Positions 2,846-8,580 of a stretch of 34,378 nt of DNA are shown in pieces. The translations under genes and the position numbers were made by a program. Origin of the DNA: a virus (taxonomy: Duplodnaviria; Caudoviricetes). The notes below the pieces were generated by a model, which was given only the letters and a program-made list of their open reading frames with translations, made no database searches and had not been told where the DNA came from. The number at the start of each line of letters is the position of its first letter. The first letter of the stretch is position 1. Location of the stretch: positions 1 to 34,378 of IMG/VR virus record IMGVR_UViG_3300020460_000009; one strand, 5' to 3'.

Positions 2846-3286
2846 TTATACTCCTTTCGTATCTATTTTATAGCACTTTTGTACTATGTTTGCAAACTTT
2901 TTTGTTTTTAAATATGTATTTTCTATGAACAACATTCCGTGTTCGTATGGTGGTTCATAGATAGCAAGAAAGTCTGCAGGTACAGGCAACCTCCTGTACT
3001 TGTAAGTCTTTATTAATTCTATTGTGTATTCTTCTATAATACATTGTGGATATTTTGCTAATATGTCTTTGTATATTTTTAAACCAAGTTCATTAGGTAC
3101 ATCACAGCCAAATGTAGAGGCACACATTTCTATAGCCGTGCCTATATATTTAGGATCTGCAGGTAACATAAGTTTTTGACAATGCAACAATGAGCTTCGT
3201 AACAGATTAAGATATCGTAATGCGTTTCGTTCTGTAGCTACATACTCATCTACTTTGTTCTCTTTGATTGCTAATAGCAAAGACAT
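2846..3286 (-). CDS. Putative helicase loader/inhibitor (G39P/lambda P-like role); start revised to 3286
   Basis: RBS AAAGGA before MSLLLAIK; motif YKDILAKYP...YRRLPVPADFL; directly follows the initiator-like gene. Confidence 0.5.
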   Translation of the reverse strand: MSLLLAIKENKVDEYVATERNALRYLNLLRSSLLHCQKLMLPADPKYIGTAIEMCASTFGCDVPNELGLKIYKDILAKYPQCIIEEYTIELIKTYKYRRLPVPADFLAIYEPPYEHGMLFIENTYLKTKKFANIVQKCYKIDTKGV

Positions 3287-3728
3287 TGTTAATCCTTTCA
3301 CGGCGTTTTTGAGTATCCTTGGTGGTTTGAGTTGTATTGGATTGGAATTTCTTGGAACGCAGTAACCAAGATCGGAAAGCGTATTGCCAATCTGACTTAT
3401 GTGTTCCACCTGCCCGATAATGGTTGATAAAGATTTTAAGTTCTTGTTCATAGTTATACCTTTCTCCAAATTCTTCTGTAATCCAACGCTTTGTATCGTA
3501 GCTTGGCTCAAAAGTTTTTGGGATTTGAGATTGATGTACATTGAGAATAAAGTTAAAGCCAAGCACAGTTATCCAATTAAAAAACATAGTGCTGCTTGGT
3601 TGCTTTTTACCACATTCCCAAAGCGATACTAACGAATCGGAAACACCTAGTTTTTCTGCAACTTCTTGCGAAGATAATCCTAGGTGTTGCCGTCTTTCTT
3701 GTAGTTCTTTGACTGCAATTCTATACAT
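3246..3728 (-). CDS. XRE-HTH protein fused to a DnaT-like/replication-initiator C-terminal domain
   Basis: N-terminal LGLSSQEVAEKLGVSDSLVSLWECGKKQP (HTH_3); C-terminal FINHY...KSDWQYAFRSWL. Confidence 0.7.
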   Translation of the reverse strand: MYRIAVKELQERRQHLGLSSQEVAEKLGVSDSLVSLWECGKKQPSSTMFFNWITVLGFNFILNVHQSQIPKTFEPSYDTKRWITEEFGERYNYEQELKIFINHYRAGGTHKSDWQYAFRSWLLRSKKFQSNTTQTTKDTQKRRERINNVFAISNQREQSR

Positions 3729-4450: not shown

Positions 4451-4478
4451 ATTATACTATTAATATACTATTATGCAA
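4451..4478 (-). promoter_or_regulatory. Possible sigma70 promoter (TTGCAT-16-TATAAT)
   Basis: Consensus-like hexamers in an AT-rich gap upstream of 4428. Confidence 0.3.
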
Positions 4479-5331
4479 CAAGTTCTTGCCATTGTTTAGA
4501 ACCTAATGTTTTAGATACTTCATCTTCTCTACGTTTACGAATAGCGTGTCCACGCTGTCCATCTGTATGAGTAGACCAATATGTCATTGCATTGTACAAC
4601 GCCCATTTAGTTCTGCCTAATGTACGTGCTTCTCTATCAAAACCTTCAAGTAATGTTTCTGTTCTTGTTACATTGTAAGGTATAGAATTAGTAGAACGTT
4701 TGAATGTTTTGCATAATGTTTGTTCAAGAAATCTTTGAACTGAATGTGGATGCAACTTGATATGTGCCCATTGTGAATAGTCCATACCAGAATCCATAAA
4801 GAAATCAAGACCAGATTTTACACGATCCGTAATACTTTGAATGTTTACATTGGTTGTATGTTTGAATCGTAATGTTGATGCGTTCATTGGTGTAGTGCAA
4901 CCATTCATACACCACAAACGTAAGCCATCACATATAGTTGCAAATGCCCACGATTGGTCATATGAATTAAAGAAGTTGATACGAAACTTTATGATATCAT
5001 CTTTCTGTGGTTCTACTACAAGGTTGTTGAATGTAACAGAGCCACGCATTTTTGCACCTGCCTCAAAGACTTCTATCTTGGTTTCGTAGTCAAACATACC
5101 CGTCTTTTCAACGCCTTGCATAACTTTATCAACCACATCTTTGTGTGCTATTGGTTTGTATTTACTGCCGTGAATACCCAGAACTTGTCCGGTATCTGTA
5201 CGTACACACGCTCTAGCCATATCAGTAGGTACTTTGTAATTGTCTTTACCAATCTGGCCTGTCGTGTTTAGTGCTTCAAGTTCCACCATTTCTGTTGGAA
5301 ACTCGTAGTCTTTTTTTATATCATCTAACAT
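4471..5331 (-). CDS. DUF932/DUF945-family protein (phage/plasmid)
   Basis: VRTDTGQVLG...YKPI.H; NSYDQS...GLRLWCMNG...RFKHT; TKWALYNAMT. Confidence 0.88.
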   Translation of the reverse strand: MLDDIKKDYEFPTEMVELEALNTTGQIGKDNYKVPTDMARACVRTDTGQVLGIHGSKYKPIAHKDVVDKVMQGVEKTGMFDYETKIEVFEAGAKMRGSVTFNNLVVEPQKDDIIKFRINFFNSYDQSWAFATICDGLRLWCMNGCTTPMNASTLRFKHTTNVNIQSITDRVKSGLDFFMDSGMDYSQWAHIKLHPHSVQRFLEQTLCKTFKRSTNSIPYNVTRTETLLEGFDREARTLGRTKWALYNAMTYWSTHTDGQRGHAIRKRREDEVSKTLGSKQWQELVA

Positions 5332-5367
5332 ATTTACTCCTTTGTTTATGGTTAGATTAATGTTAAG

Positions 5368-5628
5368 CTAAAGTTCATACTTTTCCTTTCGTAGTAGATC
5401 AGCTAGCCCCTTAGCTTGTTCTTTAAGTATGGTTAGAGAAGTGGTGATGCGTTCCAAATTATCTTGCGATAACTCTTTCGCTTCACAATTATGCAAAGCC
5501 ACTTCGATAGCACCCGTGCATTTTAATATAGTTCGCATCTCATATTCACACTTAATTAGGTATTGTAGAGCGTAAAGTTCAGAATTCAACTCCCACTCAT
5601 ACTGTTGTTCTAATGCTTCAATCGCCAA
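5368..5628 (-). CDS. Hypothetical protein (86 aa)
   Basis: ORF in the early operon; TTG start. Confidence 0.6.
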   Translation of the reverse strand: MAIEALEQQYEWELNSELYALQYLIKCEYEMRTILKCTGAIEVALHNCEAKELSQDNLERITTSLTILKEQAKGLADLLRKEKYEL

Positions 5629-5827
5629 TAGTTTTCACCCCCTTATTAATCATTGCTTTTAGTTCTAATAGCCGTGCATAATTAAAACCACAATCATTTG
5701 TATCCATTTCTTTAGCACCAATGACCTCTTCCCATTCGTTTACTAAGTCAGTAAGACAGTAAAAAAAATGTTTTTTATTATTGAATGCAGAATTTTTAGT
5801 CAGTTTTACTGATAGAGCCATTTGCAA
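5618..5827 (-). CDS. Hypothetical protein (69 aa)
   Basis: Overlaps its neighbours; AAAGGA upstream. Confidence 0.6.
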   Translation of the reverse strand: MQMALSVKLTKNSAFNNKKHFFYCLTDLVNEWEEVIGAKEMDTNDCGFNYARLLELKAMINKGVKTIGD

Positions 5828-6137
5828 TCCTTTCTAGTTTGTCTACAGCTACAGCAATTTCTTTCATATAACCAACATATTCTTCAGAGATCATATTGTT
5901 TTCTATTTGCAATAAACAAAGCTGTGTCAAGAACTTCATTTCTTCATAGTGGTGCATAGCCAAACCAAATTTGTCGTGTGATAATTTATCTTTGGCATAC
6001 AAGTCAGATATCTTTTCTTGATATTCATTAGACATCTCTCGGAATGTATTGATCCGATTGATTTCTTTGACGTGTTCTTCACGCACAATAGTTTCATAAT
6101 GATGTTGGCGTGAATCTTCTTTTAAATACTTAGACAT
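5796..6137 (-). CDS. Hypothetical protein (113 aa)
   Basis: Strong RBS AAACAAAGGAGTATT-ATG. Confidence 0.8.
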   Translation of the reverse strand: MSKYLKEDSRQHHYETIVREEHVKEINRINTFREMSNEYQEKISDLYAKDKLSHDKFGLAMHHYEEMKFLTQLCLLQIENNMISEEYVGYMKEIAVAVDKLERIANGSISKTD

Positions 6138-6507
6138 AATATACTCCTTTGTTTTTAAGTCTAATATAGCTATAGCTACATCTCGTTCTGTTAAAGATGT
6201 AGCTACAGTTTAAATGTTTTTGTTTTTGTCACCAACGGCATAACTAACCTGATCAACAGTAAGTATCACAGTCCGTCTACAAGGTACAAATTCCAAAAAC
6301 CTTTTGCCAAGCATAGGATTCAAACCTATTTAGTCTTGACATAGTTGCACATTGCTAGTCAGTTTTATAGCAACTAGTCGGGCTATGCAACCATAGTGCA
6401 GGACAGTATATGAGGAAGGATTTGTGTGTCCTGCATTATGGTGGCACTCGCCTTGCATAGTGCTATGATAGTGACCCCCCCCGAGTGAGGGACGAGTGAG
6501 GGGGGGG

Positions 6508-6681
6508 TCACTTACTCTTGGATATATGTTTGACCAATTCAACTCCATATATTGATATGTATGTACAAAAGTATAGCAATGATGTCCAGAATTCAAATTC
6601 ACTCTTATGCCAACCATCTATGACGACAATAGAAGAATAAATAAATACTGAAAATAAAATTAAATGATAACGAAAAGCCAT
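6508..6681 (-). CDS. Small two-TM membrane protein (57 aa), not in the ORF track
   Basis: AAAGGA RBS; MAFRYHLILFSVFIYSSIVVIDGWHKSEFEFWTSLLYFCTYISIYGVELVKHISKSK. Confidence 0.65.
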   Translation of the reverse strand: MAFRYHLILFSVFIYSSIVVIDGWHKSEFEFWTSLLYFCTYISIYGVELVKHISKSK

Positions 6682-6702
6682 ATTACAATCCTTTATGAAT
6701 AT

Positions 6703-6739
6703 AAAAAAACTCTGTACCGAATGAACGATACAGAGTTTT
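6703..6739 (-). terminator. Rho-independent terminator of the 177-aa gene
   Basis: Minus strand: ctctgtatcg-ttcatt-cggtacagag followed by T7, about 10 nt after the stop codon. Confidence 0.8.
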
Positions 6740-6749
6740 ATGATTAGTA

Positions 6750-7283
6750 TTAAATGTCGGTTGAGTATTTAGAATTAGTTTTCATATTGTTTCGCTTCTT
6801 CATCTCAAGATGTTTAGAAACGTCATCAACTAATTTTGCCACATCTGATTCAGAATGACCATCTAAACCAATGAAATCACCGACAAACTTATTAAACAAC
6901 TGAACATATAACTCAATCAATCGTTTCATATTTTTAACGACTTCCTGAGCTTGACCACATTTGGAACGTTGTTCTGTAATCTTTTCATCTCCATACAAAG
7001 ATTCTCGTTCCTCCATTTGGTCAAGAGTGTTCTCCAAACTGTTAAGATAATTTTGTTTATTATCTCTTTGTGAATGTAGATAATTTAATGTTCTCCCATA
7101 CAATAAGATGTTATCAATGTTCCAAGTAATGTCGTAACTTTCATCAGTATAAGACATACCATCAGAAATAGGTGGAACCATTGAGGAATCCATCTGCTCT
7201 GTGAACGCTTTGACAGTATCATCAAGGGTGAGTAATTTAGAAGAAACATTTTGTGCTCTTGTTGTTGTTGTAGAATTTGCCAT
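6750..7283 (-). CDS. Orphan acidic, helical/coiled-coil protein (177 aa); first gene of the leftward arm
   Basis: RBS AAGGAG before ATG at 7283 (MANSTTTT...); has its own terminator. Confidence 0.85.
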   Translation of the reverse strand: MANSTTTTRAQNVSSKLLTLDDTVKAFTEQMDSSMVPPISDGMSYTDESYDITWNIDNILLYGRTLNYLHSQRDNKQNYLNSLENTLDQMEERESLYGDEKITEQRSKCGQAQEVVKNMKRLIELYVQLFNKFVGDFIGLDGHSESDVAKLVDDVSKHLEMKKRNNMKTNSKYSTDI

Positions 7284-7359
7284 ATCAATTCTCCTTTCTT
7301 TGTTAGTTTTGATTGACGCATTCAACTATTCATATCCAGATTTCACCTACAACATATGC

Positions 7360-7390
7360 ACCATACCAAGGAACGACTATGGCCTGTCAA
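7360..7390 (-). promoter_or_regulatory. Putative sigma70 promoter TTGACA-19-(TG)TATGGT with AT-rich UP region
   Basis: Perfect -35 and extended -10 upstream of 7283; the spacer is longer than the usual 17. Confidence 0.5.
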
Positions 7391-7490
7391 AAAAAATATT
7401 TGCAACAAACCAAGGAGTAGGGGGATTTCCCCCAGAAATCCATATCTTTTTGACTCCCACAAGAGGCAAAAAGATTGACCTATGACTATG

Positions 7491-8124
7491 GGATTGTTAG
7501 TAAATATTTATTTTGATGCAATGTTGTAGGTGAAATCTGGCATATGACATAGTAGAATCGGCAATCCAAACTACCCAAAGAGAGGGGAATAGATATGCAA
7601 ATACTACAATAACAACAGGAGTGCAAAATGTTTCTTCTAAATTAGGAGCAACAGTATCATTTAGTATATTGTCAAAGGGTTCACAGAGTAGATGGAATGA
7701 CGATATGTGTAACCTATTTCAGATGGTATGTTGTTACTGATGAAAGTTACGCTCATTACTTGTGGTTATTGATAAATGTATGGGAAACTTAAATTCTCTA
7801 CATTTGCAAAGAGTTCAAAATTATCTTAACAGTTTGGAGAACACCCAAATGGAGCGATAATTTTTGTATGGAGGTGTAAAGATACAACGTTTTAATGTGG
7901 TCAAGCGAAGGAGTAAAATATGGAATGATTGATTGAGTTATATGTACATTTGTTTTTGTCGGAGATTTTATTGGTTTGGGTGGACAATCTGAATGTGGTG
8001 AAATTAGTAGATGATGTTTCATCTTGAGGGAAGAAGGAAACAAGTGAAAACTGATTCACTCAACCCATTTAGTACTAATCATAAAACTGTGTATCCTCAT
8101 TTGGTACAGATTTTTTTAGATTCA
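7491..8124 (+). repeat. Right arm: non-coding degenerate inverted copy of 6696-7411
   Basis: Colinear similarity with many 1-8 nt indels, no open frame, and wobble-biased substitutions. Confidence 0.95.
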
Positions 8125-8190
8125 GAATAAACAAAGAGTGCGAAGCACACCGATAGTTAGTATGTTGACTTTTTTAACAGTTGCTGATAT

Positions 8191-8580
8191 ATGAAGATTA
8201 TGTCCGTTGCAATAAAAGAAAGCAATCAAATTACTCCCAAAGCAAAGAAGTTAGTTGATACTCTCGTAGCTACGGGATGTACAATAACTGAAGCGTCAAA
8301 ACTCGCAGGATATAAAGGAAACTCATCAAGAGTAAGTGCAAGTCGTATGCTACGAAATCCAAAGGTACAGCAGTATATGTTTGAACAGATACAACATAAC
8401 TTGGGGATGAGTGCAGTTAAAGCGCAATCAAGGTTGCTTGACTTATGTTCTGGTGCGAAGTCAGAGTATGTACAACTTGAAGCCAGTAAGGATATACTTG
8501 ATAGGGCAGGATTCAAAGCACCAGATAAACATCAACATATGGTCAAAGGTGATTTCTCAATCAATATTGACCTCAAGTGA
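8191..8580 (+). CDS. terS: Terminase small subunit
   Basis: ITPKAKKLVD...TEASKLAGY...ASRMLRNPKVQQY...ASKDILDRAG. Confidence 0.85.
   Translation: MKIMSVAIKESNQITPKAKKLVDTLVATGCTITEASKLAGYKGNSSRVSASRMLRNPKVQQYMFEQIQHNLGMSAVKAQSRLLDLCSGAKSEYVQLEASKDILDRAGFKAPDKHQHMVKGDFSINIDLK

Follow-up and report, generated by a model that had tools for sequence, protein, structure and literature searches.

A gene-length fold-back beside the terminase gene of a marine podovirus, and its possible function as a single-stranded-DNA promoter

The stretch of DNA analysed here, called the window, comprises 34,378 nt (IMGVR_UViG_3300020460_000009, Caudoviricetes) and represents the circular 34.3-kb genome of an abundant marine podovirus, with an end overlap of 77 nt. 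Early genes lie on the minus strand and code for an SSB, a YqaJ exonuclease and HTH proteins; late genes lie on the plus strand and start at 8191 with terS, the gene of the terminase small subunit, which adjoins the first early gene. A DUF932 protein, a LexA-type HTH protein and an HTH protein with a weak DnaT-like domain are also found in the early region (4471-5331, 578-829, 3246-3728), in which no integrase was seen. The window gave no match to a DNA polymerase or primase, the 49 scanned proteins included no relaxase or transfer gene, and no RNA polymerase family was found in PHROGs or Pfam, the largest ORF being 1366 aa. The nearest cultured relative is Pelagibacter phage EXVC031P Hodr (OQ414635), which has the same gene order (TerL 82.6%, capsid 84.7%, TerS 71%), and a SAR11 host is inferred from this relationship; no paper on this phage was found in the literature searched. 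HTVC010P-type pelagiphages share core genes including TerL (PMC8477408, partial text). Assignment to that type was dropped, as capsid identity is 34.5% and HTVC010P is absent among the 30 TerL records listed. Its early/late gene layout resembles that of the window. The features of the locus are the following.

6693-7411, plus strand: left fold-back arm, the template for the first early transcription unit (local alignment, self-match)
7491-8127, plus strand: mirror, a non-coding, same-sense, degenerate copy with a broken frame and 11 fixed deletions of at least 3 nt (alignment, strain comparison)
7400-7500, plus strand: branched apex, in which the 177-aa and 164-aa clades are about 80% identical (strain comparison)
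about 7361-7386, plus strand: side hairpin skipped by the mirror (26-33 nt), with a 5-bp stem and a loop of 12-18 nt, conserved CCAAG..CGAC (strain alignment)
8138-8148, plus strand: mini-hairpin GTGCGAAGCAC with a GNA triloop, at the foot of the fold (sequence)
6750-7283, minus strand: first early gene; its 177-aa product (P0001) is predicted to form a helical hairpin and has no family assignment (ORF, domain and structure searches)
6696-6739, minus strand: intrinsic-terminator-like hairpin and T-run, covered by the mirror end (terminator scan; mirror ends in both clades)
7290-7296, minus strand: Shine-Dalgarno-like AAGGAGA, paired in the fold (sequence)
7320-7325, plus strand: template bases facing the mirror -10; on the strand of the gene itself the hexamer is TTGAAT, without the -11A, in 5/5 strains (strain comparison)
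7385-7390, minus strand: TTGACA behind an A/T tract, with TATGGT 19 nt away here and 19-25 nt away in relatives (sequence)
7530-7558, plus strand: mirror promoter elements GTGAAA (weak -35) and TAGAAT (-10), with A7554 (-11) unpaired in the fold (promoter scan, strain comparison)
8165-8193, plus strand: TTGACT-17-TATATG downstream of the mirror, likely the sigma70 promoter of terS (from the sequence, with like sites in relatives)
8191-8580, plus strand: terS, unpaired in this window, its coding DNA being the mirror in the Hodr clade (protein family searches, pairing test)

Local alignment of the left arm with the reverse-complemented right arm gave 592 matches with 81 mismatches; its score was 756, and none of 50 shuffles exceeded 178. 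This confirms the claim of a first-pass annotation that 7491-8124 is a colinear inverted copy of 6696-7411; the core pairing is 6693-7411 with 7491-8127, and the ragged ends of the alignment reach 6644-7421 and 7479-8199. All the sequence blocks quoted there were located in both arms, which have seven exact blocks of at least 12 nt in common, the longest of 29 nt. This fold-back is the sole long self-match in the window (823 bits, the runner-up having 40). It contains 505 Watson-Crick pairs with 87 interruptions, so that the helices are broken as had been described, more densely than the proposed spacing of about 10-30 nt. Of its mismatches 32 are transitions, which folding of the plus strand turns into 31 G·T and one A·C. 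The mirror had been said to lack a reading frame, and indeed no ORF of at least 50 aa was found in it on the plus strand; its longest stop-free runs differ among eight strains, none being common. Because the plus strand is the template of the 177-aa gene, the mirror reads in the sense of the mRNA, to which it cannot be an antisense. The terminator lies on the minus strand at 6739-6706 and the mirror stops just beyond it, as the earlier reading had it.

The whole element lies on single contigs of runs X1 (6461-8423) and X2 (5000-8240), either of which may be the source of the window, and of run X6 (6599-8279, with 24 differences), and three IMG/VR contigs agree with the locus at 99-100%. Misassembly, a concern raised in the first-pass annotation, is ruled out by these single spanning contigs from three runs, one of them (X6) from a separate study; the check was made at the level of assembled contigs of the sequencing runs.

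The stem of the side hairpin is paired in 35/35 cells, with compensatory changes in which both sides are altered in 3/5 pairs (alignment, slide -1). The words CCAAG and GAC-N-AT occur in its loop (7361-7382) and around the apex internal loop (7407-7495), and from their sequence they could represent a repeated protein-binding site. GNA triloops, such as that at the foot of the fold, are stable in DNA. Hairpins with GNA mini-loops are described for the N4 promoters in the available text of PMC4496689.

The product of the 177-aa gene had no match in PHROG, Pfam or Atlas. Its structure model, built from six sequences, reached a pLDDT of 68.6; Foldseek found nothing at E 0.001, and VIA returned generic helical hairpins only (Z up to 9.4). 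A profile of 21 first-gene sequences matched 98 unnamed proteins, and none of the 21 belongs to a clear PHROG family. Across loci L005-L084 the first leftward genes encode helical proteins of 110-230 aa, strongly divergent despite TerS identities of 60-99%. In one RNA run two 151-nt contigs (depth 2) mapped to the 177-aa gene and none to the mirror, which is uninformative either way. The database protein P0006 follows the gene at first and, from about residue 99, the reading of the mirror; judged by its sequence, it is likely a chimera made across the hairpin by template switching or assembly.

A search with the apex pattern yielded eight viral and ten metagenome stretches, two of them unrelated, and once duplicates and cut contigs were dropped eight full-length strains were left. 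Five carry the 177-aa gene (proteins 79-98% identical) and three a 164-aa gene, which has no BLAST similarity to the former and lies under the same apex; all 5 + 3 strains bear their own full-length mirror, which ends 56-57 nt past the stop codon, beyond the terminator, in both clades. Between diverged strains of the 177-aa clade, at a gene identity of 87-91%, each strain pair shows 34-43 double changes from one Watson-Crick pair to another and 25-42 changes in the mirror only, and single mismatches shift between strains. Variable gene columns are still paired in all four diverged strains in 81/111 cases, against 8-16 with swapped mirrors. Seven of the eight mirrors match their own gene best, and the eighth prefers the gene of a 99% identical strain, which bears out the expectation that each mirror resembles its own gene most. 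The 11 gene-side bulges occupy the same places in 5/5 strains, as does the -11 A·A mismatch. Bulges spaced to cap the length of the duplex were considered and ruled out, since the longest paired runs are not below random in any of the eight strains (P 0.14-0.55). This pattern of change shows a mirror under strong selection to pair with the template strand of the first early gene, so that the proposal that it is kept for pairing stands on both the compensatory changes and the fixed bulges.

The same arrangement was sought around related terS genes. Of the 80 terS loci found, 53 had sufficient upstream sequence and an unambiguous first gene and were kept, short and duplicate loci being dropped and some start codons set by hand; with the window and Hodr, 55 loci were compared. 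A fold-back at z >= 8 is present in 43/55. It covers the promoter alone in some loci, 6-24% of the gene in others, 34-88% of the first gene in the Hodr clade (88% in Hodr itself) and 100% in the two long-mirror clades. Relatives that carry the gene and lack a mirror, which the first-pass annotation had named as telling against its view, appear in a weak form: L026 has a 37% identical homologue whose mirror spans the promoter but just 32 nt of the gene, and full-length cover is therefore not required by every member. HTVC010P has no comparable fold, just a weak one without strand bias, and none was found in Vibrio phage 1.257.O or in the MEP301 stretch. Further mirrors of about 630 nt lie upstream of an 88% identical terS in L106 and L107, MAG contigs that are likely mis-binned phage contigs. 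Matches to terS occur in six MAG contigs of mixed taxa, which are likely mis-binned and give no host.

In 8/18 tested loci it is the coding DNA of terS that pairs with the first gene of the same locus, namely in L085 (Hodr OQ414635, 7405-8200), L028, L031, L034, L035, L036, L037 and L047. In these loci the arm that faces the distal portion of the first early gene consists of the terS promoter and coding DNA; the aligned part of terS is the first 74-240 nt of its coding DNA, with scores of 55-90 against about 25 for synonymous nulls (z 7-16), and the pairing peaks on the diagonal of the cross matrix. The terS of the window showed no pairing with its first gene in the same test. As far as these sequence comparisons go, two proteins share one pairing constraint in the terS-paired loci; complementarity in cis is clearly imposed on two protein-coding genes there. 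Since the coding DNA of terS pairs in Hodr-type loci, the non-coding mirror and the coding terS would serve the same role in different lineages.

The fold also brings promoter elements together. In the window the TAGAAT of the mirror faces TTGAAT on the gene strand in 5/5 strains, so that the -10 is found in the mirror only. Among 20 loci whose folds cover the RBS, the better -10 at 26-44 nt before the ATG lies on the mirror in 15 and on the gene strand in three, with two ties; this -26..-44 window was picked after viewing the alignments, and unrestricted -10 counts are 27 vs 13 of 52 and 20 vs 11 of 31. The asymmetry changes sign in windows placed over the gene start. A -35 of at least 3 bits lies 16-17 template bases from the mirror -10 in 10/20 loci, against at most two at any other spacing from 8 to 30, and along the mirror strand the same -35 and -10 are 11-47 nt apart (nine mappable loci). 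In L067, for example, TTGACA-17-TAGGTT is read across the fold, the gene strand has GAGGTG and the mirror-strand spacing is 47. As the elements are 16-17 bp apart only across the fold, unfolded DNA has no such promoter; owing to kinship among the loci, the independent cases number below 20. The ten loci with a good -35 include neither long-mirror clade, the -35 of each scoring 2.4 bits. In the window the fold promoter (8.3 bits) scores below the linear TTGACA-19-TATGGT (9.4 bits); the spacer between TTGACA and the TATGGT-type site, 19-25 nt in relatives, forms the covarying side hairpin.

The strand that folds can be read from the mismatches. Over 40 dereplicated loci, folding of the plus strand gives 190 G·T pairs against 62 for the minus strand, with 28 loci favouring the former and five the latter, and the bias is small in the 164-aa clade (6 vs 3). 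An RNA leader on the minus strand that hides the RBS is ruled out in the window, as 31 of its mismatches would be A·C. Isolated mismatches comprise 7 G·A against 14 C·T, which is opposite to DNA energies and gives no preference for DNA over RNA. A census of loops on the plus strand counted cTTg 9 vs 0 and cGNAg 6 vs 1, a weak test for DNA because gCUUGc is also an RNA tetraloop. Taken as sequence evidence, the promoter elements that meet in the fold point to a single-stranded-DNA promoter, with support across the family and partial support in the window.

It is rather probable that the plus strand, single at the entering end, folds and offers a sigma70 promoter to host RNA polymerase, and that the long partner lets the template re-close so that the mRNA is freed and terminated. 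The mirror would act as a built-in non-template strand, keeping the whole gene duplex down to the terminator. The packaged genome end would lie near terS and enter first, and 5'-3' resection by a host nuclease, later by the phage YqaJ-type exonuclease with SSB, both encoded by the phage and counted in favour of resection, would leave the plus strand as a 3' tail. Resection from a packaging end near terS would give the polarity seen, and so would strand displacement during replication. Among contigs ending at most 5 kb upstream of terS, 9/55 end within 200 nt of it, which assembly breaks could account for. The mirror would provide a -10 with an unpaired -11A, and RNA would start near 7313, about 30 nt before the ATG. 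Transcription of single-stranded templates leaves hybrids unless SSB helps (N4; PMC4496689, partial text); the gene-length partner would re-close the template behind the polymerase and release the mRNA, with no RNA:DNA hybrid left. Second-strand synthesis would then shut the promoter off, and expression would be a pulse that lasts while the end is single-stranded. In that sense, the earlier proposal of a surrogate coding strand for the single-stranded template stands in that the template strand is the one that folds and that the promoter of relatives exists only in the fold, and is weakened in that the -35 of the window is poor and a single-stranded phase has to be presumed. More tentatively, a widespread marine dsDNA podovirus group may deliver or expose the leading 1-2 kb of its genome as a single strand with a 3' end, in which a complete surrogate for the coding strand of the first gene is included, this gene being transcribed, released and terminated before the second strand is made; some lineages may write the partner into terS codons, as a second pairing code on top of two proteins. 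If so, infection by SAR11 phages would begin with a single-stranded stage that has gone unrecognised. As the cultured Hodr carries the structure, DNA entry and the firing of the first gene can be tested directly.

The closest likeness is to the Frpo/ssi elements of conjugative plasmid leading regions, in which an imperfect fold-back of the template strand joins -35 and -10 for the host RNA polymerase ahead of the first-expressed genes (PMC12672017 and PMC11541004, partial texts). Here too the template strand forms a long, imperfect stem-loop ahead of the gene expressed first, and -35 and -10 are joined by the fold in 10/20 relatives, whereas the window has a weak -35 and a linear alternative with a higher score. 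The carrier is a tailed dsDNA phage without a known single-stranded phase. The partner arm covers RBS, coding region and terminator (up to 640 nt), whereas Frpo elements were sought, according to the available text, in intergenic regions of 50-350 bp, and in one phage clade the partner is a second protein-coding gene: in Hodr it consists of the terS promoter and coding region, in the window of a non-coding mirror. By analogy, the element would work like Frpo/ssi and yet not be a member, as there is no conjugative element and the partner spans a gene; single-strand promoters, if this is true, extend from plasmids to tailed phages. In the filamentous phage minus-strand origin and plasmid ssoA, sigma70 polymerase likewise initiates on a folded single strand, making short primers on circular ssDNA with no gene covered. 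The N4 early promoters share early transcription off a folded template, the GNA mini-loop and the problem of transcript release, but they are 5-7-bp hairpins served by a virion polymerase (PMC4496689, partial text), and here the stem is of about 600 bp and no such enzyme was found. No description of a gene-length phage mirror was found in the literature searched, including the available text of PMC8477408, PMC5737381, PMC10690425 and PMC12753301 and mostly without subscription papers and supplements.

The long bulged dsRNA that the first-pass annotation listed second would be a plus-strand transcript that starts to the left of the gene and runs antisense through it and then through the mirror, as a 1.4-kb bulged rod shelving the antisense or leading into terS. 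The G·U bias suits RNA best (RNA -752 vs -642 kcal/mol), G·A is not preferred over C·T, no plus-strand T-run follows the mirror, and in the Hodr clade the fold spans the terS start. A plus-strand promoter-like site at 6441-6469, with an invariant ATGATAGTG and a conserved hairpin in 6/6 loci, could drive RNA across the fold. Against this, such a rod leaves unexplained a -35/-10 spacing that is right only across both arms, and in the window the fold stops short of the terS start; in the terS-paired loci an mRNA from the promoter just before terS would hold one arm only. Loops of the cUUCGg type number 0 in 40 loci and GNRA loops 5 vs 3, and Rfam at gathering score gave no match in the window or in eight loci. 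This RNA reading is unlikely, and the single-stranded-DNA reading is preferred to it on strand bias, covariation and the fold-only promoter.

Less likely again is a single-strand origin or priming signal, in which the fold promoter or the folded 3' end primes the second strand or marks the end for recombination or packaging, gene expression being secondary. The position at a likely genome end beside terS and the lack of a polymerase or primase match speak for it, and Frpo makes primer RNA too (title of Masai and Arai 1997, as cited in the partial text of PMC12672017). However, the mirror ends track the terminator in two clades with different genes, the -10 sits where the start of an mRNA is expected, and a primer needs no gene-length cover. 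A dead inverted duplication, homogenised by template switching or gene conversion, with one-strand deamination giving the G·T bias, is very improbable: the movement of single mismatches between strains (with the mirror-only changes), paired runs no shorter than random and the chimera-like P0006 are in keeping with it, but conversion would erase bulges that are fixed, the -11 A·A mismatch persists, terS codes for protein and so is no dead copy, and most loci fold here. Template switching may be the route by which compensatory changes arise. A cruciform extruded from supercoiled duplex, as N4 hairpin promoters are under gyrase and SSB (PMC4496689, partial text), can hardly be credited despite the strong folding of both strands, since the dense mismatches, bulges and 100-nt branched apex should make extrusion costly, G·T falls on the plus strand only and no virion RNA polymerase domain was found in PHROGs or Pfam.

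The likely -10 of terS overlaps its first ATG (window 8165-8202), so that translation may really begin at the ATG of 8200, from an mRNA with almost no leader. To the left of the fold, a second conserved hairpin at 6358-6475, with an invariant G·T pair and the invariant ATGATAGTG in 6/6 loci, overlaps the promoter-like site at 6441-6469. The motif GGTACAA-N-T-N-CAAAA lies at 6283-6305; relatives have one to three copies with swappable segments between them, and one segment by this motif is replaced in runs X6 and X9.
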